A stretch of DNA of 64,000 nucleotides from a virus (taxonomy: Duplodnaviria; Caudoviricetes). Shown here piece by piece: positions 12,483 to 50,848 of this stretch. Within the stretch, counting starts at the first letter, position 1. Each line of letters begins with the position of its first letter. The DNA is taken from IMG/VR virus record IMGVR_UViG_3300005841_000939; one strand, 5' to 3'. The notes beneath the pieces are model-generated. The model made no database searches. It was not told the DNA's origin and worked only from the letters and a program-made list of their open reading frames with translations. Position numbers and translations under genes: made by a program.

Positions 12483-13511
12483 ATGGCTGAATCAAAGAAA
12501 CTGCTTAACTTTCCCTCAGATAAGAATGGGTGTGGTTTCTATCGCACAATTATCCCTTTGGGATATTTGAGTGCAAAACTTGAATGGGATACAACATTTA
12601 TGTATCAATTCGTTTTTGATTTAAATCTTGTTCGCATGTCAGATTGGATCAGATTTCAACGTCAATGTACTGATAATCAAATGCGTTGTATTTGGGAATA
12701 CCGTAATTGTATTGATAAGACAGGTGGAAAATCTAGATTAGCATATGAATTAGATGACTTGGTACATGGAATTGAACCGCATAACGTTTTAGCTTACCAA
12801 TTCTATACACCAAAACGTAGAGAAAATGTTGTCAACATCATGAAAATGTCTAATGTTGTAACCTTTTCAACTCCATTTTTGAAGGATTTTTATCAACAAA
12901 ATTTTGGTATTAATCATTCAGTTGTAATTCCAAACTTTTTGCCAAAGTTCTTATGGAATCCTACATTTACTGATAAATCAGTGGGTGGTAAAAAGCCAAC
13001 TGTAGTTTGGGCTGGATCCGCATCGCATTGTGGTCCTGGTGGCGACTTAGAATTCATGATTCCTATGATTGAAGCAACCGTTGATGAATTTGATTGGCTG
13101 TTTATTGGCGTTGTACCTGAAAAGTTGAAAGGTAAAGTTCGCTTTATGCCATGGGTCAACTTTTGGGAATATCCAAGCATGATGCAAACCGTTCGTGCTG
13201 ACTGCGCTATTGCTCCAATTACAGACACAATTTTTAATATGGCTAAGAGTGATCTTAAATATAAAGAATTCGCTGCAATGAATATTCCTATCATTTGTTC
13301 AAGTATTGGAAATGGTAAAGGTCCATATGATTTGGCAAATGCTCCTTTGCTTGTTCAAAATGATCCTGATGCGTTTTATACAAAAATCAAGGAAGTAACT
13401 GAAAATGCTGCTCTTAAAGCAGATGTTTTAGCAAAACAGAGAGCGTACGTTGAACAAAATTGGTTTGAGAATCAATCCTCAATTGACTTATATGATCAAA
13501 CTTATCGTTGA
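12483..13511 (+). CDS. GT-B glycosyltransferase (phage GCGxYR type)
   Basis: SDKNGCGFYRTIIP, YELDD, VVWAGSASH, DCAIAPI..FN.AKSDLKYKEFAAM. Confidence 0.85.
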   Translation: MAESKKLLNFPSDKNGCGFYRTIIPLGYLSAKLEWDTTFMYQFVFDLNLVRMSDWIRFQRQCTDNQMRCIWEYRNCIDKTGGKSRLAYELDDLVHGIEPHNVLAYQFYTPKRRENVVNIMKMSNVVTFSTPFLKDFYQQNFGINHSVVIPNFLPKFLWNPTFTDKSVGGKKPTVVWAGSASHCGPGGDLEFMIPMIEATVDEFDWLFIGVVPEKLKGKVRFMPWVNFWEYPSMMQTVRADCAIAPITDTIFNMAKSDLKYKEFAAMNIPIICSSIGNGKGPYDLANAPLLVQNDPDAFYTKIKEVTENAALKADVLAKQRAYVEQNWFENQSSIDLYDQTYR

Positions 13512-13535
13512 TTGATCTAAAAATCCAACTACAAT
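13508..13535 (+). promoter_or_regulatory. Promoter TTGATT-N16-TACAAT overlapping the TGA stop
   Basis: Spacer counted by hand. Confidence 0.6.
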
Positions 13536-13537
13536 TG

Positions 13538-13568
13538 AATCCAACTTTACAATAGGTTGGGTTTTTTG
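13538..13568 (+). terminator. Intrinsic terminator
   Basis: AATCCAAC-loop-GTTGGGTT followed by a T tract. Confidence 0.7.
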
Positions 13569-13570
13569 TT

Positions 13571-14956
13571 ATGCGTATTGGTTTTTTAATATCTGATCAA
13601 CATTTTGGCGTTTGTGGTGGTATAGGTCAATTCGCTAAGAGTTTTTGTGAAATGGCTATTCGCCAAGGTTGGGTTGTTGATTTTATTGTTGATAAACCAA
13701 TTAGAAAACGTGAAGGTTCATTAGAAGATACTTTTGAAGCACATCAATTTTTTTATCCAACCAAGCCATTGTCATATGGGACTCACGCAAGCTATTTCCA
13801 GTTTGGTGATTCAATAAATCAAGAAAAAATCATAAATTTCAGAGATTCGGCAGTAAATGCATTGACTCATAATATTTACAATGTCTTTGTTGTAAATACT
13901 CCTGAAGGATTACCAGCATTACATACCCTTTGGGTACATAAACATGTTCCTATTGTATATTACACTCATATTGAAAATATGGTGTTCTTTGATAGTGATC
14001 GTAACGACACATTTCTTGATTCATTTAATCAACAAGTAACCAATTGGTTTACATTGGAGGGTGTTACTGTTGGTACACAGACTGAACAAAATAGAAAAAA
14101 CATTCTAGCAAAATATCCAAAAGCACGCGTGTTATCTTTGCCAATGTTTGTTCCTGAACAAGAGCTTTTGAAAAATAAAGAAACAAAACGTGAAGGTGTG
14201 TTATTCATCGGTAGACACGAACAAAGAAAAAATCCAACATTATTCATAAAAACATTAGTTGATATTAAGAAAAAATATGGTGTTGAATTACTTGCTAAAG
14301 TAATGACACGAGGAACGCATAAAGAAAAGTGGGAAGAAGCATTTGCTGAAGCAGGACTTAAAAACTATATATTGAAATTTGATATTATTGGTAAAGAAAA
14401 AGTTGATTTCATTCAAAGCGCAAAGGTAGCATTCCATCCTTCATTAAGAGAAAGTTTCGGATTTAGTGCCTTTGAAACTCTGCATTCATGCCGAACTATA
14501 TTGATTGAAGAGTTTGCTTGGTGGGAAAATTTTAAAGATTGGCCTAACTTGACTGTTTCTACCAAAGAAAAGGTAGTAGATGATGTTTTTACTCTTTATA
14601 ATTTAGATGCATATGATGCAGAAGAAATTAACAAATATTCAAAAAAAGTATATGACAATACACGATTGGAATGGGGTATGTTTTTTGAAGGTATTTTCAT
14701 GCAAGAAATACTCAATGAATCAGCAAACACATATATGGGAAGAAAAAATCAATTAACTGAATTGATGGATAATAACGATCAAATTAAAGTTTCGGAATAT
14801 TATGCAAATGGATTCCGACAAGATTTATTTGATAAGCTCATGCAGACAAGCAAGAAAAAATATAAGATATTCAATAAAAAAGGATATACTATATTATCAA
14901 ATAAAGACGCGATACGGTATGAAAATAATAATTCAATAACAGATTTGTTTTCTTAA
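13571..14956 (+). CDS. GT4-like glycosyltransferase
   Basis: GGIGQF, LFIGRHEQRKNP, PSLRESFGFSAFETL. Confidence 0.85.
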   Translation: MRIGFLISDQHFGVCGGIGQFAKSFCEMAIRQGWVVDFIVDKPIRKREGSLEDTFEAHQFFYPTKPLSYGTHASYFQFGDSINQEKIINFRDSAVNALTHNIYNVFVVNTPEGLPALHTLWVHKHVPIVYYTHIENMVFFDSDRNDTFLDSFNQQVTNWFTLEGVTVGTQTEQNRKNILAKYPKARVLSLPMFVPEQELLKNKETKREGVLFIGRHEQRKNPTLFIKTLVDIKKKYGVELLAKVMTRGTHKEKWEEAFAEAGLKNYILKFDIIGKEKVDFIQSAKVAFHPSLRESFGFSAFETLHSCRTILIEEFAWWENFKDWPNLTVSTKEKVVDDVFTLYNLDAYDAEEINKYSKKVYDNTRLEWGMFFEGIFMQEILNESANTYMGRKNQLTELMDNNDQIKVSEYYANGFRQDLFDKLMQTSKKKYKIFNKKGYTILSNKDAIRYENNNSITDLFS

Positions 14957-14959
14957 TTC

Positions 14960-14987
14960 TTGACGTGGAATTACAACAATTTAGAAT
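14960..14987 (+). promoter_or_regulatory. Promoter TTGACG-N16-TAGAAT, 9 nt before the folE ATG
   Basis: Spacer counted by hand. Confidence 0.7.
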
Positions 14988-14996
14988 GGATAACAT

Positions 14997-15620
14997 ATGA
15001 CGAAAATTAAAGCAAATGGTAATCAGCCTCTTACTGAAAAAGAATTGGCCAAAAAACAAAAGAAAATGGAAAAGGTCTTTCAAGACTTCTTTAAAGTTCT
15101 TGATTTTGATACAGAAAATGATCCTAATATTAAAGAGTCTTCACAACGCATGGCAAAAATGTGGGTTAGAGAACTCCTTGAAGGTAATTTCTCCGAAGAA
15201 CCAAAAATAACTACTTTTCCAAATCAACAAAACACAGACCAAATGATTATTTCTGGTCCTATCAAGGTTGATTCTGTATGTAGCCACCATGGAATTACAA
15301 TTGCCGGTTCATGCTATATCGCATACATTCCAGGTGACGAAGTTATTGGAATTTCAAAATTCTCAAGAATAGTTCGTTTCTTTAGTCGTCGTATGCAAAT
15401 TCAAGAAGAAATGACACAACAAATTTCTGATTACATACAAAACTTGATGAAGCCTAAGGGAATTATAGTGTTCATGAAGTGTCGTCACTTTTGCGAAATT
15501 GCCCGTGGTGTTAGAGAAGAAAATATCTGGATGACTACTTCATCCGTACAAGGTGTTTTTAAAGAAAACGCATCAGCAAGACAGGAATTCTTTAACTTGA
15601 TTAATGTAGGTAACAAGTAA
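14997..15620 (+). CDS. folE: GTP cyclohydrolase I
   Basis: RMAKMW, SVCSHH, IAYIP..IGISKFSRIVRFFSRRMQIQEEMT, HFCEIARG. Confidence 0.95.
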   Translation: MTKIKANGNQPLTEKELAKKQKKMEKVFQDFFKVLDFDTENDPNIKESSQRMAKMWVRELLEGNFSEEPKITTFPNQQNTDQMIISGPIKVDSVCSHHGITIAGSCYIAYIPGDEVIGISKFSRIVRFFSRRMQIQEEMTQQISDYIQNLMKPKGIIVFMKCRHFCEIARGVREENIWMTTSSVQGVFKENASARQEFFNLINVGNK

Positions 15621-15624
15621 TACA

Positions 15625-16926
15625 ATGGAATACCAATCAGATTTCATTTTTTTCCCTGCCATTTCAATTGCGACACATACGCAAATCATGAAGGCAGATT
15701 TCAAAGTTAAGGGTAAATCTCCAAGATTTTACTTAAATAGTCTTACAGATGATAAGAAGCTATTTAATCATCCTTATATTTTGACATCAGCAGCGCACAA
15801 CTTCAAGAATATAAATTTCATGAAGGATATTGGTGTTAATGATGTGAATAAAGATGTAAATCTGATTTTTGGTGACTCGGGTGGATTCCAAATCAAGACT
15901 GGAGTAATCAAAGATACACCAGAAATAAAGGATAAACTTTATACATGGATGGAAAACAATGTAACAATGGCACCAATCATTGATCATCCACCTACATATA
16001 ATGGAGATAAAGTATCAGAAAAAGATTTTGATGAATATTTGAATAAAACAAAAGAAAATATTGAATATCTTCAAAAGCGTCCAACAAAAAACAAGATTAA
16101 TTGGTTGAATGTTACCCAGGGCGTTCTTTATGAAGACCGTAAGAAGTGGTACGATGCTGTAAAGGACTATAACTTAGATGGTTGGGCTATGGGATCTTTA
16201 AGAAAAGATGCCAGAGTAATTCTAAATGCATTTGCTGTGTTCTTAGAAGGTGGTGAACTGGAAAAGAAAGATAGATGTAAACACATTCACTTCTTTGGTA
16301 TCACTGCAACCAAATACATGCCATTGATGATTTACATCAAGCATAAAATGCATCAAGCTGGATACAAAATTAACGTATCAATGGATAGTTCCTACGCAAC
16401 ACAAAATGGTGGTTGGGGAAAATTCCTATTCTCGCATAACGATTTTGAAGCCATAAATTCAATTGATAATAAAGAGTCATATTTGAGTTCAGAAAAATCA
16501 AAAGGATTCCTATCTTACCATTTGAGTAACAGACTTATTGGAAAGGTTAATGGTGATGTAAATCTTCCATGCTATTGCCCTGTATGTACTGGTATTAAAC
16601 TAAAAGATATTTTAAATGACAATGCGTTAAAAACTGTTGGTGAGTCGTATTACTATAATGTTGTTCAATCACATAACGTGTTCGTTTTAAAAGAATATGT
16701 GAATAGTCTTCAAAATATTATTTACACAAATTCATATGACCTGTACAGTAGCGCATTTAGAAGTTATGATGTATATTTGTTCAAATTAATTGATAAAATG
16801 TTTGATAATCCAAAACAAGCAAGTTATTTAATTGCAAGTGAAGGTGAAAGACTTTCAGATAGAGAAGAACAAGATAAAGCCCAAGAAAAAGAGGGTGAAG
16901 ATATGAAAAATGAGTTCTTTGAATGA
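15625..16926 (+). CDS. dpdA: TGT-family (DpdA/ArcTGT-like) 7-deazaguanine transglycosylase
   Basis: GDSGGFQ, IDHPP, VTQG, WAMGS, HIHFFG, SMDSS, Zn site LPCYCPVC..HN; adjacent to folE. Confidence 0.8.
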   Translation: MEYQSDFIFFPAISIATHTQIMKADFKVKGKSPRFYLNSLTDDKKLFNHPYILTSAAHNFKNINFMKDIGVNDVNKDVNLIFGDSGGFQIKTGVIKDTPEIKDKLYTWMENNVTMAPIIDHPPTYNGDKVSEKDFDEYLNKTKENIEYLQKRPTKNKINWLNVTQGVLYEDRKKWYDAVKDYNLDGWAMGSLRKDARVILNAFAVFLEGGELEKKDRCKHIHFFGITATKYMPLMIYIKHKMHQAGYKINVSMDSSYATQNGGWGKFLFSHNDFEAINSIDNKESYLSSEKSKGFLSYHLSNRLIGKVNGDVNLPCYCPVCTGIKLKDILNDNALKTVGESYYYNVVQSHNVFVLKEYVNSLQNIIYTNSYDLYSSAFRSYDVYLFKLIDKMFDNPKQASYLIASEGERLSDREEQDKAQEKEGEDMKNEFFE

Positions 16927-17843
16927 ATATGTTATTACATACTACAGGAAAAAGAGACATTGAAGAAATAGAGTGGTGTCCAACATTAGTTAAACCTGAT
17001 GAAATTATGATAAAAACTTGGGCATGTGGTGTATGTCGTAGCGATGTTGCTGCATATGCTGGATGGGAAAAACCAATGCCTTTTGGTCAACAAGGACATG
17101 AGGGGCTTGGGACTGTTACTGCTATTGGTTCAGATATTTTAAATGTAAAAATTGGTGATTATGTTGCAACATGGTCAGATCCTGCATATTCTGATTTTTA
17201 TAAAGCAAAAGTTGGTGAATATGTAAAAGTTCCAGAATTGAAAAAGGATTATATTCTTCAACCATCAGCATGTGCGATCAATATTGCTAGAAAGTTTTTA
17301 GCACAAGCAAGATATGGATGGCCAATTTTAATTATTGGTTCAGGATTTATGAGCTTGATTATTGGACAATACTTAAAAATACTTGGTAGAGAAGTAGTTG
17401 TGGCAGGGTCATCACATAAGTCTGAATGGGATAAAATAGGTATACCATTAACATCAGTGAATGAACTTGTTGAAAGTGGAAAGAAGTGGAAAGGTATCAT
17501 TGATTTAAGTAGTAAAGCTGAAAATTTTGATTTAATCAGTAAACATCTTGGTGATGTTGAAGCAGTTATTTGTTATGCTGCAACACCATTTACTCCTGTA
17601 ACTACAAATTTCTTTGATTCGTGCTGGAATTGTCATACATTCATCATGCCAAGTCCAAGAAATAAAGATTTCAATGACATGATGAGATTGACCGCAGAAT
17701 TAATTTCTTTAAACAGAATAACAGTTGGCAATTATTGGACGCAAGAATACAATAGATCATCTATGACCGAAGTTAAACAAGCATTTGAAGACGGAGTCAA
17801 TCGTCCAAGTGGTTATTTACGCGGCTACATTCGCTGGAACTAA
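16923..17843 (+). CDS. Zn-dependent medium-chain dehydrogenase/reductase
   Basis: CGVCRSD, GHEGLG.V..IG..V.IGD.V, IIGSGFM; structural-zinc lobe absent. Confidence 0.8.
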   Translation: MNMLLHTTGKRDIEEIEWCPTLVKPDEIMIKTWACGVCRSDVAAYAGWEKPMPFGQQGHEGLGTVTAIGSDILNVKIGDYVATWSDPAYSDFYKAKVGEYVKVPELKKDYILQPSACAINIARKFLAQARYGWPILIIGSGFMSLIIGQYLKILGREVVVAGSSHKSEWDKIGIPLTSVNELVESGKKWKGIIDLSSKAENFDLISKHLGDVEAVICYAATPFTPVTTNFFDSCWNCHTFIMPSPRNKDFNDMMRLTAELISLNRITVGNYWTQEYNRSSMTEVKQAFEDGVNRPSGYLRGYIRWN

Positions 17844-17845
17844 TT

Positions 17846-18913
17846 ATGAACGTTTATATTATGGCCCTTGAGGCAATTGAAAGTCGTTATACCTGGTATT
17901 GGGAAACAGAATTAGAAAAACGTATTAATGAATATATTAAAAACGATATAACTCTTAATGAAAAAAATATAAAAGTAATAACTTTAAAAGGTGATGATGA
18001 AGATAATGAAGTAGTAGCTACCCAAGGTGCATTTCTAAATTTCACAACAACAAATGCATGGAAAAATAGTCAGATGAATAAGCTAATTGGCTTATTTAAG
18101 AGTGGTGAAATAAAACCAAAAGATAAAATAATATTTCCTGATGCATGGCATCCTGGTATAATTCAAGTTAGATACATCAGTGAATTGACTAAAGTACCTG
18201 TATCAATTTATTCACTTTGGCATGCTGGTAGTTATGATTATCAAGATTTTTTAGGTAGAGAAATTCAAGATAAAAGTTGGGTAAGACACGCAGAAGCAGC
18301 ATTCTTTGATGCATCTGATTACAATTTATTTGCTACTAGATTTCATAAATCAATGTTTATGCAAACATTTAAATATAGAGTAAATAAGAATAAAGCGCAT
18401 ATTGTAGGATTTCCATTTCAATATATAAAAGATGTTAAGCAACCTGAAGTAATTAAAGAAAACATTATTCTGTTTCCACATAGAATAAGTTCCGAAAAAC
18501 AACCACAAGTATTTAAAGAATTGGCAAAGCGTATTCCAGAATATCAATTTATAATTTGCCAAGAAAAGAATTTATCTAAAACGCAATATGGTAATTTGCT
18601 TGCTAGATCAAAAATGGTATTCTCTGCGAATCTACAAGAGACACTTGGTATTTCATGCTATGAAGGTGCAGTAAACGGAGCATTACCCTTCGTTCCTGAT
18701 AGATTATCATATAAAGAAATGTATCCAAAATGGTGTCAGTATGAAGGATATTTAACTGGCGGTAGTTTGGAATCACGATATTTAGATATTTTATCATTTA
18801 TGGTGAAGGATATGCTCGCAAATTATGATGAACATGCAAAGAAATTGCCAAGTTTGGTGAAACGTCTAGATCGTTTCTTTACAATGGATAAAATGTTACA
18901 GGTTATATTTTAA
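17846..18913 (+). CDS. GT-B glycosyltransferase of the type found beside phage folE/queD-like genes
   Basis: LEAIESRY..W, DAWHPG, WHAGSYD.QDFL, FPHRISSEKQP, LQETLGISCYEG. Confidence 0.75.
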   Translation: MNVYIMALEAIESRYTWYWETELEKRINEYIKNDITLNEKNIKVITLKGDDEDNEVVATQGAFLNFTTTNAWKNSQMNKLIGLFKSGEIKPKDKIIFPDAWHPGIIQVRYISELTKVPVSIYSLWHAGSYDYQDFLGREIQDKSWVRHAEAAFFDASDYNLFATRFHKSMFMQTFKYRVNKNKAHIVGFPFQYIKDVKQPEVIKENIILFPHRISSEKQPQVFKELAKRIPEYQFIICQEKNLSKTQYGNLLARSKMVFSANLQETLGISCYEGAVNGALPFVPDRLSYKEMYPKWCQYEGYLTGGSLESRYLDILSFMVKDMLANYDEHAKKLPSLVKRLDRFFTMDKMLQVIF

Positions 18914-18917
18914 TAAT

Positions 18918-19094
18918 ATGAAAATAAAATATGATCTTTCTTATAAACATGTAGCTGGTGTTGGACCACTACCTCATATAACATTGGATTTGGATTTTAC
19001 TATAGAAGAAAAACCAATCTTGATGGAAGTGTTAGAAGAAATTAAAACCGCAACAATCATTAAGAGAAAAAATGAAAATAACAGTAAAAACTAG
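18918..19094 (+). CDS. Small hypothetical protein, 58 aa (not in the ORF track)
   Basis: ATG..TAG fills the gap in the operon and overlaps the next start. Confidence 0.55.
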   Translation: MKIKYDLSYKHVAGVGPLPHITLDLDFTIEEKPILMEVLEEIKTATIIKRKNENNSKN

Positions 19095-19425
19095 TTTCCC
19101 AGGTATTCATCGTTGGAAAGATGCTCCCGAACAAGTGGATTTTCTACGAAGTTTCCACAGACATATTTTTAACATTTCTTTTTCTCTTGAAGTGACTCAT
19201 GCTGATAGAGAGCTTGAATTCTTTGTATTAAAATCAGCAGTAGATTCATATATTGATGCTAAGTGGTCAAATTATAAAAATAACCATAATTTGAAATTTT
19301 TTGGAGATGATTCTTGTGAATCTCTTGCGTTAGCTATAAAAACTTTTCTTGAAACTGAATACGGTTCTGGTAGAAAAGTATCTGTAAAAGTTCAAGAAGA
19401 TGATGAAAATTATGGTGAAGTATGA
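19072..19425 (+). CDS. QueD paralog of T-fold type, DpdL-like
   Basis: GIHRW..FLRSFHRHIF = LxxxHRHxF instead of the QueD CxxxHGH; RELEF, SCE, EDDEN. Confidence 0.75.
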   Translation: MKITVKTSFPGIHRWKDAPEQVDFLRSFHRHIFNISFSLEVTHADRELEFFVLKSAVDSYIDAKWSNYKNNHNLKFFGDDSCESLALAIKTFLETEYGSGRKVSVKVQEDDENYGEV

Positions 19426-19880
19426 ATGAAAGTAAATTAATTACAGCCTTTGATATGGATGGCGTTATTGTATCCGATATTAATATGGATTATAATAATC
19501 CCGAGCAACTTGAAAAAATAAAACAAATTCGTATGGTTTGTGAACCAATTTTCAGACCACATGGCACATTTGTTATCATTACCGGTCGTCCAGAAAATGA
19601 GCATGATCAGACTTGGCAATGGCTGGAAATGTATAATGTAAAACCACAAAGAGTTTTCTTTAAACCAGAGCAATACGATTTCTCAAAACAATCAATAATT
19701 GATCATAAGGCAAGAACTATTCGTGAGTTGAATAGAACATTATACTATGGGTATGTCACAAAATTTGTTGAAAGTGATAAAACTCAAGTTGAAGGTATTT
19801 CTAAGCAAGTTGATATTCCTGTAATTCATTTTCCAGTATTTTCAAGCAATGCGTTAGTACATGCAGGATGGTGGTACTAA
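19422..19880 (+). CDS. HAD-superfamily phosphatase
   Basis: FDMDGV, ITGR, K, FVESD motifs I-IV. Confidence 0.8.
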   Translation: MNESKLITAFDMDGVIVSDINMDYNNPEQLEKIKQIRMVCEPIFRPHGTFVIITGRPENEHDQTWQWLEMYNVKPQRVFFKPEQYDFSKQSIIDHKARTIRELNRTLYYGYVTKFVESDKTQVEGISKQVDIPVIHFPVFSSNALVHAGWWY

Positions 19881-20168
19881 ATGCCAAAATATACACCTGA
19901 TGAACTTAATAAATTGCTTTTTAATAAAGTAAATCAAGCTATTAGTTTACATGCAATAGGTGATAATAAAAAGTCCGCAATTACATTAGCAAGTGCTGCC
20001 AGAATTCTTGATCGTTGGGATCGTTTAGTCAAAAATCCACCAGTAAAGAAAGAAAAACATATTGAAGAAAGTGTTGTAGAAAATGATCCAGGACGACGGC
20101 AGAGAGAAGGAACTGATAAAAAAGTTCAAACTGAAACAAGCTCCGAGTCGGAAACGTCAGGATCTTGA
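19881..20168 (+). CDS. Hypothetical protein
   Basis: ORF abutting the HAD stop; 3' end overlaps the next gene. Confidence 0.55.
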   Translation: MPKYTPDELNKLLFNKVNQAISLHAIGDNKKSAITLASAARILDRWDRLVKNPPVKKEKHIEESVVENDPGRRQREGTDKKVQTETSSESETSGS

Positions 20169-20730
20169 CGCTTTTTTGCATTATAAGCGTATCAGTTATG
20201 ATTTTGAATTAAAATCAACAACAGTTGGTGATGTTTCAACTGCAAGTCCAGTGACAATTGATCACATTAAAAAATGGCGTCATATACATTGGTTAATTGG
20301 AATTTATGATGAAACCACTGTTAAATTAAAACATGTTTTATATGCTAGTCCTGATATGATGACCGATTGGTTGAATGCACAAGAAGAAGATATTCAACGC
20401 GGTCTAACAATTTCACATGCGCTAGCTGGAAAAATTGATTACGACCTACTTTTTAAAATATTTGGAGAGAAACCTTTCTATACATTTGAAGAAGCTAAAA
20501 AGGTCTACAAGAAATTGTGGACTAAAAACGAATATATGTTGATGTCAGATATTCCTGGTGGATATTCATCAGAAACTATGTTGAAAATGTTCCAGGATCA
20601 CAACTTATCTTATATGATAAGAGGTAGCTTCTTAAATAATCCCAAGATAACGAAAAAGTATACCGATAAGTTCATTAAAATAGATGGTGATTTTGCTAGA
20701 ACACTGCGTAAAATCATTAGTCCAACGTAA
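20083..20730 (+). CDS. PvuII-like type II restriction endonuclease (PD-(D/E)xK)
   Basis: QDDG, R.DLDA, FELKS, VST, KKWR.IHWLIGIY, LNNPKI..KY are colinear with PvuII QDNG, REGNDA, YELKS, FST, AKYRQVPWIFAIY, INNPKIPVKY as recalled. Confidence 0.7.
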   Translation: MIQDDGREKELIKKFKLKQAPSRKRQDLDAFLHYKRISYDFELKSTTVGDVSTASPVTIDHIKKWRHIHWLIGIYDETTVKLKHVLYASPDMMTDWLNAQEEDIQRGLTISHALAGKIDYDLLFKIFGEKPFYTFEEAKKVYKKLWTKNEYMLMSDIPGGYSSETMLKMFQDHNLSYMIRGSFLNNPKITKKYTDKFIKIDGDFARTLRKIISPT

Positions 20731-28656: not shown

Positions 28657-29694
28657 ATGGAACGTATTTTAATTGTTACAGGATGTGCAGGATTTATTGG
28701 ATTTAATTGGTTAAAATATTATCTCAAAAATAATAAGACTATTTGGGGCAGTATTGTTTCTATTGATAGTTTTACATATGCAGCACAATATAATATTGAA
28801 GAATATTTAGATTTATGTAAAACTCATGGAATTATTCATATTGAAAAAGATATTAATCTTTTATCAAATAAAGAATATGTTGAATTTTCTCCTAAGAGTT
28901 GGGATGCAAAATATACTGTTTTGAATTTCGCATCACAAAGTCACGTTGATAGAAGCATTGCAAGTCCATCGCAACTTTATTTTGATAATATTGGAATCCC
29001 AGCATCGTTAATTGATTGGTTAGGTGGAACTCAAAAGATTGAAGTTTTTAATCACATTAGTACAGATGAAGTTTATGGCGATATTAAAATTTCTGAGAAG
29101 GATGACAAATCAAAATGGTTCACCACAAAGAGTCCATTCAATCCAAGTAATCCTTACAGCGCAAGTAAAGTAGCTCAAGAAGCCTATTTGATGTCACTAT
29201 CAAGAACGTTTGGGTTGAATCTTCAAATTTATCGGATGGGAAATCAATTTGGAAAACATCAACATCCGGAAAAAATGTTGCCAATCTCAGTCCTTCGTTC
29301 CATGGCAAGTCGTCCAATAAAAATTTATGGTGAAGGCAAGAATTGCAGATTATGGACTTATGTTGAAACCACTGCAAAGATTATTAGTGATCGTTTGGAA
29401 AATCCTGTAGATAAAAATCCAAAACATCCTCAAGATATTTTACATATTGCCGATAAACGTTTCCTAGTTGATAATAATTATATAGTTGAATTGATACGAT
29501 TGACACTAAAACAAAAATATGATATAACAACATCCGTTGAATATGTTCCTGATCGCAAAGGTCATGATGAAGTGTACGCATTGATTACTGAACCAGCAAT
29601 TGATCAATATTTTACAAATTCATTGCAAGGAACAATTGAGGAAATAGTAGAATTTTACGTACAAGGATACAAAAATGCAACCTATGACAATTGA
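28657..29694 (+). CDS. rmlB: dTDP-glucose 4,6-dehydratase
   Basis: GCAGFIG, FASQSHVDRSI, ISTDEVYG, PSNPYSASK, QHPEK, DRKGHD. Confidence 0.9.
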   Translation: MERILIVTGCAGFIGFNWLKYYLKNNKTIWGSIVSIDSFTYAAQYNIEEYLDLCKTHGIIHIEKDINLLSNKEYVEFSPKSWDAKYTVLNFASQSHVDRSIASPSQLYFDNIGIPASLIDWLGGTQKIEVFNHISTDEVYGDIKISEKDDKSKWFTTKSPFNPSNPYSASKVAQEAYLMSLSRTFGLNLQIYRMGNQFGKHQHPEKMLPISVLRSMASRPIKIYGEGKNCRLWTYVETTAKIISDRLENPVDKNPKHPQDILHIADKRFLVDNNYIVELIRLTLKQKYDITTSVEYVPDRKGHDEVYALITEPAIDQYFTNSLQGTIEEIVEFYVQGYKNATYDN

Positions 29695-29974
29695 TTCTGA
29701 TAGAGAAGAATTACATGGATATTTTAAACAAGAAATTTTGCCATTAATTAAACAAAAAGAACACACGCAAGAGTTTAAAAAATCAATTGATACTCTAATA
29801 TCAAATAAATTTGGAATAAAATACAAAATTATCGTTAGATTCTATGATGATACGGTTCGTGTTTCTGCCCATAAGAAATCAAATGGTATCATATACTTTA
29901 TGGCAGCAACATCCGAGAACAAAGCTGATTATGATTTCAGCAATGAGGGTTGGGCTACTACTTTTTTTAAGTGA
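29675..29974 (+). CDS. Hypothetical protein
   Basis: ORF in the operon. Confidence 0.6.
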   Translation: MQPMTIDSDREELHGYFKQEILPLIKQKEHTQEFKKSIDTLISNKFGIKYKIIVRFYDDTVRVSAHKKSNGIIYFMAATSENKADYDFSNEGWATTFFK

Positions 29975-29981
29975 GATATAA

Positions 29982-31448
29982 ATGACAAATACGGTTGGAC
30001 ATAAAGAGCTTGAAAATTGGTGGGATGGCCGCGTCATAATTGATGAATTAAAAGAATTTGTTGATGCCCGGGGTTCGCTCACTGAATTATGGCGAAATGA
30101 TGATGATAAAGCAAAGGTAACTGAAAAAGATGAAACAAATTCATCTTTTTATGAACCGTGTATGTCATATTGGAGTGAAACAAAACCATTCGTACAGAGA
30201 GGTCCACATGAACATGTAGGACAAACTGATGTGTTTGTGACATGGAAAGCACGAATGATTTACAATCTTTATAATCCTGTTACAAAAGAAATGAAATATT
30301 TTGTAACTGACCCAACAAAAATTTATCGTGTAAAAGTTGGTATTGGCATTATTCATTCATATAGAAATATTGGTTTTTCAGATTCATTAACTGGCAATTT
30401 TCCAACATCATTATTCATGGGTTTGGATAAAAAGGGATGGAAAGATGGGCAAAAAGTTGATGAAATTCGTCATGAAGAAGAAGTAAAACCAGAGATAACA
30501 TATTGGTTGCTTGGTGCTGGTGGTCGTTTGGGTAATTCTTTCTTAAAATCTCTTCATAAGAAGATGGGTTATCACACATTCAACGTTATTCCTTTATTTG
30601 ATAAATTTGCAAACAATAAAGAAGGTTATGATAAGTTGAATGTTTTGTTGGAAGAAATTAAGAAGACAAAAAATAGTGTAATTATCAATTGTGTTGCTTA
30701 TACAAATACGGCTGATACAGGATCAGCATTACATAATGCATGTAATACATCACTACCAACATATTTGACATCATTTGCTGCATTAGAAAACGTACCATTA
30801 ATCCATTTCAGCACTGATTATGTTTATCAAACGGGCGCATTAAATGCTTATACTCAAAGCAAAATGCGTTATGAATCATGGCTTAAAGATTCAATATCAT
30901 CATCACATATCGCAGAATTTAAAGCAGCAAAAGAAGCCGAAATTCAAGATATGGAAAATAGTTCAATGGATGAAATAACAATAGAAGCATATCGGACAAA
31001 ATTTGAAGAGGTTGTTTCTACCTTAGAAAAAAATAAAGCTGATATTGAAAAAAATGTGCGTATTTTAAGAGTGGCGAATTTGTTTTCTGTTGATACTAAA
31101 GAAGATATGTTTGATAAAATTTATGCAAAAATTAAAGATGGGTCAATACGTGTACCATTTAAGAAGTGGTCAACCCTTCCAACATCAACGGATGACCTAG
31201 CTGATTGGGTCGTAAGTGATGTTTTGAATAGTTTTGACAAATTCAATGTATTTACTAATGTAAGTGGTAAGCAATATACAATGGAACAAGTTGTTAAGGA
31301 TCTATTCAAGAGTAATATTCCTATCATAGAAACTAATAATGCATTGGTAGACCTTAATCATACTGCTTTTATTTCAGACAATGCTGTTATAATCAATTGC
31401 GAAAAATCCATCCAACAAAAAATTAGTAAAATAACAGCACATGAGTAA
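29982..31448 (+). CDS. RmlC-like epimerase (cupin) fused to RmlD-like reductase
   Basis: DARGSLTELWR..RGPHEH..GIIHSY; then LGAGGRLG, NCVAYT, HFSTDYVY, YTQSK, LRV, PTSTDDLA. Confidence 0.8.
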   Translation: MTNTVGHKELENWWDGRVIIDELKEFVDARGSLTELWRNDDDKAKVTEKDETNSSFYEPCMSYWSETKPFVQRGPHEHVGQTDVFVTWKARMIYNLYNPVTKEMKYFVTDPTKIYRVKVGIGIIHSYRNIGFSDSLTGNFPTSLFMGLDKKGWKDGQKVDEIRHEEEVKPEITYWLLGAGGRLGNSFLKSLHKKMGYHTFNVIPLFDKFANNKEGYDKLNVLLEEIKKTKNSVIINCVAYTNTADTGSALHNACNTSLPTYLTSFAALENVPLIHFSTDYVYQTGALNAYTQSKMRYESWLKDSISSSHIAEFKAAKEAEIQDMENSSMDEITIEAYRTKFEEVVSTLEKNKADIEKNVRILRVANLFSVDTKEDMFDKIYAKIKDGSIRVPFKKWSTLPTSTDDLADWVVSDVLNSFDKFNVFTNVSGKQYTMEQVVKDLFKSNIPIIETNNALVDLNHTAFISDNAVIINCEKSIQQKISKITAHE

Positions 31449-37513: not shown

Positions 37514-38692
37514 ATGGAAGTGCCACGTTTTTTAGTAGAAACAACATTTTCTGAAGTTATTAGATGTGGTCGTCGTAAGAGGTCAAACTCTGACAAATTG
37601 ACCATGGAAGGAATATGCCCTTTCTGTGGTAATCCAAAAAGACCATCAAAGAAAAAATTCTATCTATATACCTCAAAAAGTGCATCATATAATGTTGAAT
37701 GCAAGTCTTGTGGTTATGGTACTACTTTTACAAATTTTATAAAAGAAAATTATCCAGAAAAGTACGAATATATTAAAATTCAATGTTTTGATTCTATCAA
37801 GAATGGAAAAGCATTTGAGCATCCAAAACAATCGGAAGTTATTTCAGTAAAACTTAAACCAGATGAAAAAATAGATCGGTTCTTGACAGCTTTTTTACAT
37901 ACTTGTTGCGTCAATCTATATAAACATCAAAAAGATCCAGAATTGGAATCTCGTAGAATTCACGCATTGACAAAGATGGAAAAAAGAAATATCTCAAAAG
38001 ATATTCTTGAAGAATATTGGCTTTGTTATAAAGGTAAATTTTCGGATCGTGTAATTATACCTTTCTTCAATGAATCAGGATTATTATATAATTTTCAAGC
38101 CAGAGACATTACAGATAATCCTGATGAATATCGTAAAGGTACAAAATACTTGTTCGCTTTATTTGAAAAAATAGTTTTGCCCGACGACAAAATTTACAAA
38201 ATGTATCTCGCAGATCCAAAGCAGACGGTATATATATGTGAAGGAATTCTTGATAGCGAGTTTATAGAAAATTCAGTTGGGTTATGTGGTGTTTCAATGA
38301 GTGAAGAGAAAATAGATTTAATGCGTGAACGTTGGCCAAAGCGTGTTTTCTGTATTGATTCTCCTTGGACTGATGAAGCTGGTTATGATACAATTTTCGC
38401 TTTATTAAAAATGGGAGAACGCTGCTTTATCATGCCAAAGGAACACAGTGATTGTAAAGATATAAATGATCTTGCTTTAAAACTAGGAGTATCTAAAATA
38501 AGTGAACAATTCTTGGAAGAAAATTGTTACGAAGGTATACTTGGTATAGCAGCAGTCAAAGTGTTGTTGGCAACATCTATAACTGCTAAAGGGCGAACGA
38601 TTAAAACATACGAACAAAGATTACAAGAATTTAAAGAACAGGAAGCGAAAGAGACATGGGATTACCTCACCTCACAAACGAAAAAGCAATGA
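37514..38692 (+). CDS. gp61: DNA primase
   Basis: CPFCG..CKSCG zinc finger, RVIIPF..QAR, ICEGILDS, KDINDL. Confidence 0.92.
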   Translation: MEVPRFLVETTFSEVIRCGRRKRSNSDKLTMEGICPFCGNPKRPSKKKFYLYTSKSASYNVECKSCGYGTTFTNFIKENYPEKYEYIKIQCFDSIKNGKAFEHPKQSEVISVKLKPDEKIDRFLTAFLHTCCVNLYKHQKDPELESRRIHALTKMEKRNISKDILEEYWLCYKGKFSDRVIIPFFNESGLLYNFQARDITDNPDEYRKGTKYLFALFEKIVLPDDKIYKMYLADPKQTVYICEGILDSEFIENSVGLCGVSMSEEKIDLMRERWPKRVFCIDSPWTDEAGYDTIFALLKMGERCFIMPKEHSDCKDINDLALKLGVSKISEQFLEENCYEGILGIAAVKVLLATSITAKGRTIKTYEQRLQEFKEQEAKETWDYLTSQTKKQ

Positions 38693-39492
38693 AGAACTAC
38701 TTCGGTCCACAAAGTGGTATCGGAGATAAGGCAGTATATTTAGCTGAAAAACCATTTGTAACCATTCAGGGTGAAGGTCCAAATGCTGGTAAGAATACAA
38801 TTTTCATCAGATTTTTTGGTTGTAACCTAGCAAATAGTTGCGGTGTTGATTGGTGTGATTCGGGTCACTCATTCTATACTGACAACGAATTAAAGAAGGA
38901 TCCTATAACTGGTAATCCAACAGAATATCCACCAAAACCTGATCGTTTGACGTATGCATCGGTTGAAAAATTTTGTGAAGTTATTTTTGAATTGGATTCA
39001 ATCGCCAAATTTAATAATATTGTATTTACGGGTGGTGAACCTTTATTGTGGCAGATGACTATTGCAAAAATTCTTGGCTATCTCAAGAATCAATATAATA
39101 GAACAGTAACTGTTGAAATAGAAACAAATGGAACTATTCAAATTGAACCAGAATTAACTGATTGGTTTAGAATGGTACATTTCAATATTTCTCCAAAAGT
39201 ACACGTTGTTAAGAAGTTTCCACTTGTTGAACAACTATCAACAAAAACGTTTGATCATGACGATTGGATCATAAAATTCGTTTATGAAGATGATGAAACC
39301 GAAGATCAAATTGCAAGTTTTATTAAAAAGTATGACATTGAAAACCATAAGGTTTATATAATGCCAGAAGGTATTACTACCGAAGTTCAAATTAAAAAAA
39401 TGCAACCTATAGCAGAATGGTGTATTAACAAGGGTTATAATTTTAGTCCAAGACTTCACGTACTTATTTGGAATTTAGCTAAAGGCATCTGA
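38689..39492 (+). CDS. queE: 7-carboxy-7-deazaguanine synthase (radical SAM)
   Basis: TIQGEG..FIRFFGCNL..C....CDS, FTGGEP, IETNGT, ISPK, PRLH; ATGA overlap at 38689. Confidence 0.9.
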   Translation: MKNYFGPQSGIGDKAVYLAEKPFVTIQGEGPNAGKNTIFIRFFGCNLANSCGVDWCDSGHSFYTDNELKKDPITGNPTEYPPKPDRLTYASVEKFCEVIFELDSIAKFNNIVFTGGEPLLWQMTIAKILGYLKNQYNRTVTVEIETNGTIQIEPELTDWFRMVHFNISPKVHVVKKFPLVEQLSTKTFDHDDWIIKFVYEDDETEDQIASFIKKYDIENHKVYIMPEGITTEVQIKKMQPIAEWCINKGYNFSPRLHVLIWNLAKGI

Positions 39493-40808: not shown

Positions 40809-40839
40809 ACGTTAGAATAAGACAAGATTGGAGTCGTTC

Positions 40840-41682
40840 ATGACCAATATTGTCTTTATTCAACCAATTTTTGCACCAGATGAGGGCATATCGGAGAGAA
40901 ATGTAAATTCTCTTCAATCTATTAAAAATTATATTGATGTGAATGGCCTAGATGGTTGCAATGTTCAGGTGATCATTGGTGGATGGGCTAGAACCGATGC
41001 ATTGTGGCAAAAAATGGTAGCAAAATGTAAAGAAGTATTTGGTGCAACATACGAACCAATCCGATTTGATAAGAATTATGGTAAAGCAATAGTTGTTAAT
41101 AAGCTTTATGAAGTTGCTCGCAAAAATGGTGTAAATCCTGATTTCTTGTTTACATGTGATTCAGATATTCTTTTTCAACCTGAACAAAAACATATGTTTT
41201 TGCGTTTAGTGGCAGCAGCTAATCATTTAACAGAAGTTAAAAAGATTCCATTTGGAATGATTTCATTAAATCAACTTTCTGGTAATTGTCATTGGCCAGT
41301 GTGCTATCAAAATCAGATTACATATACAATGTCAGTTAATGCGACTGAAAAATTTGAAGAAAAAATGGTTTGGCCAAATACACCAAGTGGAATTGCTGGC
41401 GGCTGTCTCTTTTTAAGTCGCGCTTTTTGGGATACAGTTGGTGGATATAAAGTATTTGGCGTATATTCTGGTGATGATGCATATTTACTTTTAGAATGTG
41501 GAAAACGTGGTTGGTCATATCAAATGGCTGATACAATTTCAATTATCCATCCAAATGAAAATGATGCAGAATATTCAGCTTGGAAGCACAAAGTCTGTGG
41601 TCGTGATATGATGTCAGGATTTAAACAAAATATTGATAATATCATTCAAGAAGCAGATGCATTTTGGGATGCAAAGAAATGA
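40840..41682 (+). CDS. GT-A glycosyltransferase (GT2/GT7C-like)
   Basis: NYGKA, CDSDI, GGCLF..VGGY..YSGDD; GGAG SD before 40840. Confidence 0.75.
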   Translation: MTNIVFIQPIFAPDEGISERNVNSLQSIKNYIDVNGLDGCNVQVIIGGWARTDALWQKMVAKCKEVFGATYEPIRFDKNYGKAIVVNKLYEVARKNGVNPDFLFTCDSDILFQPEQKHMFLRLVAAANHLTEVKKIPFGMISLNQLSGNCHWPVCYQNQITYTMSVNATEKFEEKMVWPNTPSGIAGGCLFLSRAFWDTVGGYKVFGVYSGDDAYLLLECGKRGWSYQMADTISIIHPNENDAEYSAWKHKVCGRDMMSGFKQNIDNIIQEADAFWDAKK

Positions 41683-42299
41683 AAATAGCAATCGTATGCA
41701 ATGGATGGAAATGTCGTTTGAAAGAAAATGGTACATTCATTGATTCATGTGATTATGTCATTCGCATGAATAGATTTAATTTAGAAGGATTTGAAAAATA
41801 CGTTGGATCTAAAACAAGTGCAGTATCACTAATGATAACTGGTGAAGGAACAACATCTGGAATTCTTGGACATGATCCTTTATTAAAATATGTACCAGAC
41901 GCCAAACATATTTGGATTCCTGACAAATATCGTGCAGAGCATCAGCATCAAAGAAATAGGGCAGCGGATCATTATCGTAAATCATTAGATGATTTTTTAT
42001 TTGTTGATGGCATAGTTTATGACAGACTTTATAATAAGATGCAATCATTATCTGAGGGTAAAGGTGTTAGACGAGAATGGTATTATCCTGATTCAGGGAT
42101 GACTAATATAGAAACAGCTTTATATAGATTTCCTAATTCACAAATATTTGTTTTTGGATTTGATCCTCATCGCAAACATCCATACAAATATTATTGGGAC
42201 AACAGTGAAGATGGTTTTGCTGAAAATGAACATCCACAAGTAGCGGAATCAATTTTGTTTGATGAATATATAGAAAAGGGTTTAGTTCATGAGCTTTGA
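41679..42299 (+). CDS. GT29 (sialyltransferase-like) protein
   Basis: IAIVCNG..G.FIDSCDYVIRMN resembles sialylmotif L; SGM, GFD..Y..Y, H...E. Confidence 0.7.
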   Translation: MKIAIVCNGWKCRLKENGTFIDSCDYVIRMNRFNLEGFEKYVGSKTSAVSLMITGEGTTSGILGHDPLLKYVPDAKHIWIPDKYRAEHQHQRNRAADHYRKSLDDFLFVDGIVYDRLYNKMQSLSEGKGVRREWYYPDSGMTNIETALYRFPNSQIFVFGFDPHRKHPYKYYWDNSEDGFAENEHPQVAESILFDEYIEKGLVHEL

Positions 42300-43062
42300 T
42301 TTACGCCAAAGTACTTTCATAATTCCATATAAGTATGATACTCCTGAAAGACTTAGGAATATTAATGCTGTAGTGACCTATTTACAAAAGCATTTACAAA
42401 CAAATATCATGGTTTGGGAAGAAGGTCCAAATTCAACGTACAAACCACATTCTGGCGTAGATTATACATACGTGCAGTCAACTGGTGAATTATTTCATCG
42501 TACTGCAATTCTTAATAAATTAACAAAGAAAACAGTCACCCCTGTTGTTTTTGTTTATGATACTGATGTTTTACTTGATCCTGCACAATATGTTGCTGCA
42601 CAAGAAATAATTGTTTCTAGAGGGGCTGATATGGTTTTTCCATATGATGGCCGTTTTTTAAATATTCATAATCCTGATATTATTAATTATGTAATACAAA
42701 CCTTGTCAGTTGCGGGACTTAATAATGAAACGGATACATCAGTAAATCATCCTAATAGTGTTGGTGGAGCAATCGCTTTCAAGCGTGAATCATATTTTAG
42801 ATTTGGTTTAGAGAATGAAAATTTTGTTAGCTGGGGCTGGGAAGATAATGAGAGAATAACACGAATTCAAAAGCTTGGTGGATCTATAATTCGCATTCGT
42901 GGTCCACTTTTCCACTTGAATCATCCATCATCAACAAACAGTGCTAATACATCACATAAACCTTATTTTGATAATCAGCAAGAGTATATAAAAGTGGCAA
43001 ACATGCCACCCGAACAATTACGGGCATATATTAATTCATGGCCCTGGAGATTTGATGAATGA
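42289..43062 (+). CDS. GT7C/GT2-like glycosyltransferase, paralog 1
   Basis: IIPY..RLRN, YDTDV, GG, ENENFVSWGWEDNER, LFHLNH. Confidence 0.85.
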   Translation: MSFDLRQSTFIIPYKYDTPERLRNINAVVTYLQKHLQTNIMVWEEGPNSTYKPHSGVDYTYVQSTGELFHRTAILNKLTKKTVTPVVFVYDTDVLLDPAQYVAAQEIIVSRGADMVFPYDGRFLNIHNPDIINYVIQTLSVAGLNNETDTSVNHPNSVGGAIAFKRESYFRFGLENENFVSWGWEDNERITRIQKLGGSIIRIRGPLFHLNHPSSTNSANTSHKPYFDNQQEYIKVANMPPEQLRAYINSWPWRFDE

Positions 43063-43835
43063 TTTCTTTAACTGATGTAACATTTACCATACCAGTTAAG
43101 TTTGATTCCAATGATAGAAAAAGGAATCTAGCAACTATAGTAGGGTATCTTCTTAAAAATTTCAATACAAATATAATAATTCTTGAAGATGGCCCTCATC
43201 ATGCCGTTCAAGATGTATTGTCGGAGTATAATAAAAAATATACTCACATATTTGTAAAAAAGACTAATAATGATTTGATGCATAGAACCATGTATTTAAA
43301 TTTCATGGCAAAGGAAGCAAAGACACCAATCATTGTTAATTATGATACTGATGTTTTATTGCCAATTGATCAATATGTTAAGTCGGTGGATTTAATTCGC
43401 AATGGAATAGCTGATGGTGTTTATCCTTATGCTGGAAAATTTATCAATATAGAAGGTCAGCTTCAAGAGCTAGTTATAAAAAATAAATCTCTCATGGGCA
43501 TCACGGAATCAAGTGGGCGCTGCTTGGCAGAAAATAGTTATGGTGGATGTGTTTTTTGGAATAAAGATAAATTCATACAAGGTGGAATGGAAAACGAAAA
43601 CTTTATTTCTTGGGGACCTGAAGATTTGGAACGTTATATCAGATTTACAAAAATGGGATATAAGATTCAACGTATACCTGGTGTACTTTACCATTTGAAT
43701 CATCAAAAGAGTTTAAATAGTGCAAATATGCAGCACTCTGCATTTCAAAATAATGAAGCTGAATATCAAAAAGTTAAGAATATGCATCCTGAAGAGTTGA
43801 AAAATTATATAAAATCTTGGAAATGGATGTCATGA
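43059..43835 (+). CDS. GT7C/GT2-like glycosyltransferase, paralog 2
   Basis: YDTDV, GGCVF, ENENFISWGPEDLER, LYHLNH. Confidence 0.85.
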   Translation: MISLTDVTFTIPVKFDSNDRKRNLATIVGYLLKNFNTNIIILEDGPHHAVQDVLSEYNKKYTHIFVKKTNNDLMHRTMYLNFMAKEAKTPIIVNYDTDVLLPIDQYVKSVDLIRNGIADGVYPYAGKFINIEGQLQELVIKNKSLMGITESSGRCLAENSYGGCVFWNKDKFIQGGMENENFISWGPEDLERYIRFTKMGYKIQRIPGVLYHLNHQKSLNSANMQHSAFQNNEAEYQKVKNMHPEELKNYIKSWKWMS

Positions 43836-44689: not shown

Positions 44690-44706
44690 TCATATAGAAT
44701 ACTTAC

Positions 44707-45600: not shown

Positions 45601-45603
45601 TAC

Positions 45604-50039: not shown

Positions 50040-50051
50040 ACCTTACTCCAT

Positions 50052-50846: not shown

Positions 50847-50848
50847 TA

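Follow-up and report, generated by a model that had tools for sequence, protein, structure and literature searches.

What do glycosyltransferase genes do among the 7-deazaguanine genes of a tailed phage? The question is raised by a 64,000-nt stretch of DNA (the window; IMG/VR record IMGVR_UViG_3300005841_000939, Caudoviricetes), which is part of a T4-like soil jumbo phage genome of ~380 kb. Nine open reading frames (ORFs) at 12483-19880, all on the + strand and with neighbours 0-59 nt apart or overlapping, occupy the slot between gp55 and gp43. A sequence-only reading of the window had described them as a co-oriented run of deazaguanine genes with three glycosyltransferases, a dehydrogenase and a phosphatase, and had proposed that they make a glycosylated deazaguanine base for the phage DNA. 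The run itself was borne out, all nine ORFs being recovered in place on that strand. Our best reading of the sequences is that the genes from 13571 to ~20170, together with a dispersed QueE-like gene, form a DpdL-type 7-deazaguanine DNA-modification system with a dedicated glycosyltransferase, here called GT_C. That the phage DNA carries a sugar-bearing 7-deazaguanine is the outcome towards which we lean, if only modestly. The run comprises, in order:

12483-13511, + strand: GT_A, a GT-B-type glycosyltransferase (phrog_7162 glycosyltransferase, E 1.8e-32)
13537-13564, + strand: terminator-like hairpin between GT_A and GT4_B (11-bp stem and T run)
13571-14956, + strand: GT4_B, a GT4 glycosyltransferase (PF00534, E 1.8e-9; E-x7-E motif in the sequence)
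14997-15620, + strand: FolE, GTP cyclohydrolase I (PF01227, E 1e-49; NF006824, E 2.3e-53)
15625-16926, + strand: TGT-superfamily transglycosylase, DpdA-like (PF01702, 26.7 bits against a cut-off of 26.3; TIGR00449, E 3.8e-7)
16923-17843, + strand: MDR-type Zn-dependent dehydrogenase (ADH_N, E 3.4e-11; structural-Zn lobe missing)
17846-18913, + strand: GT_C, a retaining-type GT4 glycosyltransferase (AF2 model with pLDDT 91.5; GT-B/GT4 fold, E265-x7-E273)
18918-19094, + strand: 58-aa ORF (no family match)
19072-19425, + strand: DpdL-family T-fold protein, a QueD paralog of 117 aa (AF2 model with pLDDT 93.3; FLRSFHRHIF)
19422-19880, + strand: small HAD-type phosphatase (DMDGV and TGR motifs; weak phrog_415 and phrog_1238 matches)

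Linkage of GT_C to the transglycosylase gene

An alignment of GT_C relatives matched at least 566 IMG/VR stretches, from which 80 loci were fetched. The ORFs of the fetched loci were searched with profiles, and counts were limited to 33 loci whose flanks reached at least 8 kb in each direction; GT_C loci that lacked a partner gene were contigs ending too early. A TGT-like gene and a DpdL-like gene were each present in 33/33 of these fully flanked loci, FolE and QueE each in 31/33, gp43 in 32/33 and an MDR gene in 14/33. The pairing of GT_C with the transglycosylase was kept in at least five gene orders, of which the commonest was gp43, TGT-like, (MDR), 177-aa protein, DpdL-like, 83-aa protein, GT_C, FolE, phosphoribosyltransferase (PRTase), HIT, QueE. 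A second lineage had the order QueD, QueE, FolE, PRTase, gp43, (Gfo/Idh/MocA oxidoreductase, MDR), GT_C, TGT-like; here the stop and start codons of the glycosyltransferase and transglycosylase genes overlap, and there is no DpdL. Phage ACP17 and cyanophage BUCT-ZZ01 showed further gene orders with GT_C (ASD50404 in ACP17) and a TGT-like gene. The clustering of the cassette families is not due to chance, as their joint occurrence is repeated in hundreds of unrelated contigs.

The same association was seen outside the environmental contigs. GT_C occurred in 23 of 50,697 cultured phage records (the PA5oct group, Phosso, ACP17, BUCT-ZZ01 and several Xanthomonas, Erwinia and Burkholderia phages), and a TGT-like or DpdL gene lay nearby or in the same genome in 23/23. 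Among bacterial assemblies, the pair of GT_C and TGT-like genes was present in 29 loci and was adjacent wherever the flank sufficed. Because the bacterial loci often have no FolE or QueE within 8 kb of the pair, the invariant core, judged by gene content, is GT_C plus the putative transglycosylase. The sequence-only reading had offered itself for rejection should the glycosyltransferase and dehydrogenase genes prove unlinked to dpdA in related phages; when this was checked, the genes were linked in the 33 loci, in the cultured phages and in bacteria. Gene conservation thus indicates a functional tie between the deazaguanine and transglycosylase genes and at least one glycosyltransferase, GT_C.

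Other genes accompany the pair. Of 77 modules, ~59 contain a phosphoribosyltransferase (PF00156) and ~33 a HIT-domain protein (IMG/VR loci L015-L093; for example at L023:2820-3335 and L054:13778-14314), and the annotation of BUCT-ZZ01 has XGPRT at the corresponding place. One possible role of the PRTase is to recycle the guanine set free by bulk base exchange. Looking up the 177-aa protein kept in PA5oct-type modules gave no usable lead. In bacteria, the pair (L104-L127) is in some cases joined by DpdL and lies on large chromosomal contigs from isolates that include Magnetospirillum, Pelagibacterium, Devosia, Ochrobactrum, Azospirillum, Shimia, Sulfitobacter and Thalassobius.

Close relatives of the window phage vary in what they carry in the gp55-gp43 slot, whose flanks in the window are of T4 type (NrdAB, gp46, gp47 and gp55 on the 5' side; gp43, UvsX, gp41 and gp32 on the 3' side). 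Besides an empty slot in relative L100, we found three cassette states. The window-type state (L004 and L008) has MDR, GT_C, DpdL and HAD genes and a transglycosylase 77% identical to that of the window, and a reduced state (L002) has a distant glycosyltransferase and DpdL. The QueC-type state (L001, L003, L005 and L006) has HAD, a PRTase-like gene, QueC and sometimes a GT2, a GT9-like protein or a methyltransferase; its transglycosylases are 46-72% identical to the window's. In L003, the PRTase-like gene and QueC replace MDR, GT_C and DpdL, and the transglycosylase is 72% identical with every active-site motif identical. Given how little the transglycosylase differs between sugar-type and QueC-type cassettes, we infer that the base it inserts is identical or similar in the two types, and that finishing, by amidation or nitrile formation in one type and by glycosylation in the other, follows afterwards, plausibly on DNA.

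The two other glycosyltransferase genes of the run behaved differently from GT_C. GT_A is 58-64% identical across all close relatives, including L100, which has the order gp46, gp47, gp55, GT_A, a homolog of a 142-aa ORF, gp43. The L100 slot contains no FolE, TGT-like or PvuII-like gene, and neither FolE nor a TGT-like gene lies elsewhere on the 67.8-kb contig. We rejected GT_A as a module member: since it is retained in the cassette-less L100 and is followed in the window by the terminator-like hairpin at 13537-13564, GT_A is probably a resident of the gp55-gp43 slot unrelated to the deazaguanine cassette. GT4_B is absent from the close relatives, and Synechococcus phage BUCT-ZZ01 has a homolog with 37% identity immediately 5' of its TGT-like gene, a single independent recurrence. 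GT4_B may be a second sugar transferase. The proposed link of three glycosyltransferases to the deazaguanine genes thus stands for GT_C, has one recurrence behind it for GT4_B and fails for the separable GT_A.

The proteins of the cassette

The predicted structure of GT_C has a two-Rossmann GT-B fold, and its top structural matches are the retaining GT4 enzymes BshA, MshA, GlgM and PglA (E 1e-9 to 1e-10), with sucrose-phosphate synthase also among the closest. E265 and E273 of the donor domain were invariant across 24 family sequences. The N-terminal acceptor domain was unusually conserved, with invariant aromatics at Y15, W19, F63, F66, W101, Y110, Y130, F135 and W145, and this aromatic-rich conservation suggests an acceptor that is fixed and probably planar. 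The window protein scored 17.8 bits against Pfam Glycos_transf_1, below the cut-off of 26.4, and 9/24 family members matched that profile at E≤0.01. Because only 1147 of 1.84 billion representatives came up at E≤1e-3 in an exhaustive search, GT_C is, by this measure, a divergent, self-contained and delimited family and not a generic GT4. The median pI of the family (5.75) equals that of the transglycosylase and is uninformative on DNA binding.

The 117-aa protein had no Pfam match and no PDB match by single sequence or profile, and was placed only because of its predicted fold and its match to a protein of phage phiST. The model has the T-fold of PTPS and QueD, which were also the best Foldseek matches (TM 0.68-0.73, E 1e-5). 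DpdL is defined by LxxxHRHxF in place of the QueD signature CxxxHGH (PMC10516641); the window protein reads FLRSFHRHIF, and H29, R30, H31 and F33 did not vary among 40 family members. By tblastn, the protein shares 31% identity with phiST CGPG_00067 (98% of the query, E 8e-10), and the family HMM matched the phiST protein at E 7e-30. Sequence and model together thus identify it as a DpdL family member. CGPG_00067 was named DpdL by Cui et al. 2023 and is a proposed, unproven decarboxylase of 7-carboxy-7-deazaguanine (CDG) (PMC10516641). The earlier label of QueD paralog is therefore sharpened to a published family, and the accompanying idea of a 7-substituent awaiting reduction is not supported, because the proposed DpdL product, 7-deazaguanine, has no such substituent to reduce. 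Measured against the gene set by which DpdL systems are recognised (FolE, QueD, QueE and DpdA, with no QueC), the window has FolE, a QueE-like gene and the TGT-like gene, plus a QueC-like gene. QueC is absent from PA5oct, ACP17, BUCT-ZZ01 and a 100%-complete 364-kb viral genome, each of which encodes a canonical QueD.

The transglycosylase is presumed, from its family, to be a base-exchange enzyme. D84 (in DSGGFQ), D120 and D254 were invariant in 34 sequences, and the window protein retains the nucleophile Asp; CxCxxC...H is kept in this clade. PDB matches of the family profile were TGTs only and weak (E 0.03), with the catalytic Asp and the Zn-site His aligned; no match to the bacterial DpdA chains in the PDB was found. 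The family groups with PA5oct EST35_0316 (540 aa) and a 424-aa protein of ACP17.

The MDR protein aligned to the catalytic Zn ligands of 6iqd (Cys, His-Glu, Cys) through CGVCRSD, GHEG and SACA, and has GSGFMS at its dinucleotide (Rossmann) site. Its structural-Zn lobe is gone, with ~30 residues missing between query positions 84 and 86 (chain 87-117). This enzyme had been proposed to reduce a 7-substituent to a hydroxyl or amine that would then be glycosylated. We rejected the MDR protein as a general maker of the acceptor handle, because it is missing from 19/33 fully flanked modules and from ACP17 and BUCT-ZZ01. Full-length homologs among cultured phages occur solely in 11 PA5oct-group genomes, and in PA5oct the gene lies 27 kb away from the module. 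In one lineage, MDR adjoins a Gfo/Idh/MocA oxidoreductase, of a family typical of sugar oxidation and reduction. Because MDR is optional and is once paired with this oxidoreductase, the redox genes look more like candidates for sugar tailoring than for handle-making.

The HAD gene is kept in all cassettes of this T4-like clade, the QueC type included; a search of its sequence against the PDB was uninformative, as it was for the TGT-like protein. The 58-aa ORF had no family match in library scans and no homolog among close relatives. A promoter scan gave nothing above chance, and a DNA-level search of cultured phages gave no match. This DNA traces only to 2017 rhizosphere metagenome runs in the form of assembled contigs, from which no base-modification signal can be read. 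Beyond the nine ORFs, the following features bear on the system:

19881-20168, + strand: 95-aa ORF
20155-20170: terminator-like hairpin closing the cassette
20083-20730, + strand: PvuII-like endonuclease bordering the cassette on its 3' side (49-55% identity to relatives matching PF09225; D...ELK motif)
38656-39492, + strand: QueE-like radical-SAM enzyme of CDG synthase type, away from the cassette (TIGR03963, E 1.5e-20; TIGR04322, E 1e-16)
56851-57717, + strand: QueC-like PP-loop protein (PF06508, 36.8 bits; SGGxDS and CxxCxxC)

The QueE-like protein matched the modules' own QueE family at E 1.3e-35. Its cysteines are spaced C-x5-C-x4-C (CNLANSCGVDWC) where the usual radical-SAM CxxxCxxC is expected. 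The QueC-like protein shows no relationship to QueC in the sister cassettes, and among cultured phages its best and sole relative is encoded by a QueC-like gene in Bacillus phage SP-15 (33% identity); it can be tied to this pathway only tentatively.

A proposed sugar on 7-deazaguanine and competing explanations

In the pathway that we propose, FolE, a canonical QueD encoded outside the window and QueE would, by homology, make CDG. The DpdL-like protein would alter CDG, for which decarboxylation to 7-deazaguanine is the published but unproven proposal, and the DpdA-like transglycosylase, going by its family, would swap guanine in the phage DNA for that base after replication. GT_C, as a retaining GT4 enzyme, would put a sugar on the deazaguanine, most likely on DNA after insertion, because the transglycosylase is nearly the same in sugar-type and QueC-type cassettes. 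MDR, and elsewhere Gfo/Idh/MocA, may tailor the sugar, GT4_B may add a second one, and the HAD phosphatase would have a supporting role. The indications that DNA is the target of the transglycosylase are indirect but consistent. PA5oct DNA resists restriction enzymes with G-containing sites, and a modified G is suspected, the base not having been identified (PMC12191111); phiST, a DpdL carrier, has dG replaced in its DNA by 2'-deoxy-7-deazaguanine (dDG) (PMC10516641); and the modules analysed here sit beside DNA polymerase, among replication genes.

The closest described pathway is that for dDG in phiST (DpdL and DpdA3), which shares with the window FolE, QueE, the LxxxHRHxF QueD paralog, a TGT-superfamily transglycosylase, the lack of QueC in the module and an adjoining DNA polymerase. 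It differs in having no glycosyltransferase, dehydrogenase or HAD gene, in the size of its DpdA3 (259 aa) and in that the window has the QueC-like gene 37 kb from the cassette. PA5oct (Wroclawvirus), of another phage family, has the same TGT-like gene with a GT_C homolog (EST35_0317, 44% identity) directly downstream and with DpdL-like and QueE genes nearby, but in another gene order and in a module that contains a PRTase; the preprint on END nucleases names only QueE and PTPS in this phage (PMC12191111). The system also recalls the glucosyl-hydroxymethylcytosine (glucosyl-hmC) of T-even phages, likewise T4-type phages with a GT-B fold enzyme and with a protective sugar on a non-canonical base that would be expected here, too, to be added after replication. 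There, however, a pyrimidine is made at the nucleotide level, whereas here a purine analogue would arise by base exchange, GT_C belongs to GT4 and no hydroxymethyl handle is evident.

No described pathway for phage deazaguanines includes a glycosyltransferase, in line with the sequence-only reading, and our literature searches found no report of a glycosylated deazaguanine in DNA. Cui et al. 2023 counted eight 7-deazaguanine DNA bases, none of which bears a sugar, and the string 'glycosyl' occurs 0 times in that paper (PMC10516641). The sugar-bearing DNA bases that we found in the literature are all pyrimidines, namely glucosyl-hmC, glycosylated 5hmC (5-hydroxymethylcytosine) and 5-hydroxycytosine. 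A glycosyltransferase locked to a base-exchange enzyme in hundreds of phage lineages and some bacteria predicts a glycosylated purine analogue in DNA, in cultured phages among others, including the therapy candidate PA5oct. If true, this would add a new layer to the contest of phage modifications with restriction enzymes, CRISPR, DNA glycosylases and END nucleases, and it would explain the G modification of PA5oct and the behaviour of the ACP17 genes in Escherichia coli described below. What the window adds is that T4-like relatives swap QueC-type and sugar-type finishing cassettes around a near-constant transglycosylase, which points to tailoring after insertion. The proposal of a glycosylated deazaguanine is thus upheld in the tie of GT_C to the pathway, and not in GT_A and the three-glycosyltransferase module, the handle chemistry assigned to MDR or the reduction of a 7-substituent.

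Several points weigh against a sugar on 7-deazaguanine. One is chemical: 7-deazaguanine has no hydroxyl, so O-glycosylation would need another acceptor; the sugar might sit in a C7/C- or N-glycoside or be linked to CDG as an acyl glycoside, or DpdL might make a product other than the one proposed. ACP17 dpdL and dpdA expressed in E. coli gave no detectable dDG in the hands of Cui et al. (PMC10516641). No modified-base chemistry has been reported for any of these phages, and the literature on MIJ3, Burkholderia phage S13 and jumbo phages contained no chemistry for this modification. In structure, GT_C comes closest to GT4 enzymes that act on small molecules (BshA, MshA, GlgM), and T4 AGT and BGT were not among its top 50 structural matches. 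As to the other enzymes, the window holds no canonical QueD within its 64 kb, the TIGR03963 and TIGR04322 scores of the QueE-like protein lie below the curated cut-offs, and the transglycosylase is only remotely like phiST DpdA3 (hhalign probability 64% over 112 columns). The DNA itself is also heavily purged of restriction-type palindromes, which would be unexpected if every G were shielded. TCGA occurs 2 times in the window against 192 expected; AGATCT, GATATC, ATCGAT and TTCGAA each occur 0 times against ~22 expected, and CTTAAG once. The median observed/expected ratio of 6-mers is 0.39 for palindromes versus 0.84 for others, and in the closest relative, L004, TCGA occurs 5 times against 28 expected. 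This suggests that the DNA is incompletely shielded, or exposed before it is modified after replication.

The alternative that survives best, though we regard it as unlikely, is that GT_C acts in the pathway and leaves no sugar in virion DNA. Glycosylation of the free base or of an intermediate would then be transient, or its product removed during or after insertion, the final base would be dDG or another plain deazaguanine, and the sugar might serve solubility, transport or self-protection. The likeness of GT_C to small-molecule GT4 enzymes, sucrose-phosphate synthase among them and several with a partner phosphatase, would suit such a role, as would the HAD phosphatase of the cassette, except that HAD is also present in QueC-type cassettes without GT_C. 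The example of phiST cuts both ways: it makes dDG with DpdL and without a glycosyltransferase, but as it reaches full replacement in this manner, a detour through a sugar would have no obvious benefit. The overlap of the glycosyltransferase and transglycosylase genes in several lineages also counts against this alternative.

It is quite unlikely that the TGT-like enzyme and GT_C modify tRNA, giving a sugar-bearing wobble base of queuosine type in the manner of animal QTMAN and QTGAL. The TGT superfamily consists primarily of tRNA enzymes, and tRNA-queuosine alpha-mannosyltransferase (QTMAN) was the second-best Swiss-Prot structural match of GT_C, but the likeness is of a generic GT4 kind (TM 0.65, 13% identity). 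We rejected GT_C as a QTMAN, the QTMAN_N domain (PF12038) being found in 0/24 family members at E≤0.01. Animal QTMAN/GTDC1 and QTGAL resemble the system proposed here in that a GT4-fold enzyme acts on a 7-deazaguanine derivative inserted by a TGT-family enzyme; their substrate is tRNA, however, and their acceptor is the cyclopentenediol of queuosine, which the window pathway could not make. DNA as the target is further indicated by the restriction resistance of PA5oct DNA itself, by the company that DpdL keeps with dDG in DNA, and by the position of the modules next to DNA polymerase, often with a phosphoribosyltransferase that fits bulk guanine salvage.

A third alternative, that the glycosyltransferases serve virion or cell-envelope glycans and that the deazaguanine neighbourhood is incidental, we consider improbable overall. 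It draws on the abundance of such genes in the window, which holds at least nine further glycosyltransferases and sugar-nucleotide genes, on the independence of GT_A from the cassette and on the absence of GT4_B from close relatives. For GT_C it is untenable: this gene adjoins the transglycosylase across hundreds of viral contigs and in bacterial genomes, and does so in no fewer than five gene orders, and its family is sharply delimited and has a very conserved acceptor domain.

A cluster making a small molecule instead, either a pterin glycoside or a deazapurine nucleoside of toyocamycin or tubercidin type, is highly improbable, since, for all that FolE, a PTPS-fold protein, a reductase and a ~355-aa glycosyltransferase are the parts list of bacterial pteridine glycoside synthesis (the BGluT/PGT pathway of cyanobacteria and Chlorobium, whose glycosyltransferases have ~356 aa; PMC5683033) and that related modules repeatedly contain PRTase together with HAD or HIT genes, the window T-fold protein has Leu instead of the catalytic Cys of the PTPS/QueD CxxxHGH, QueE (31/33) and the transglycosylase (33/33), which the window system needs and neither small-molecule route does, are co-conserved, and the bacterial core of GT_C and TGT-like genes often has no FolE nearby.

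The nuclease and the glycosyltransferase island

A PvuII-like nuclease closes the cassette in every cassette-bearing relative (L001-L007) and is absent from L100. In nuclease-bearing loci, CAGCTG was observed 1 time against 12.1 expected (Poisson P 7e-5), versus 25 observed and 19.1 expected in loci without the nuclease. From these counts, the phage appears to avoid the likely site of its own nuclease rather than to rely on base modification.

The further glycosyltransferases and sugar-nucleotide genes of the window include a large glycosyltransferase island at 40.8-53.5 kb, with a supply of GDP-fucose/colitose-type and UDP-xylose-type sugars and two methyltransferases. We hold it highly doubtful that the DNA carries a deazaguanine with an oligosaccharide, for which GT_C would add the first sugar and GT4_B and some of the island enzymes would extend it into a purine-linked DNA glycan, with the PvuII-like nuclease destroying unmodified host DNA. 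The island starts directly after the topoisomerase subunit that follows queE, and GT29-, GT7C/GT2- and GT10-like transferases together with an FkbM methyltransferase lie at 40828-53528. Between gp32 and the topoisomerase genes (28657-31448), an NDP-sugar epimerase/dehydratase and an RmlD-domain protein are encoded.

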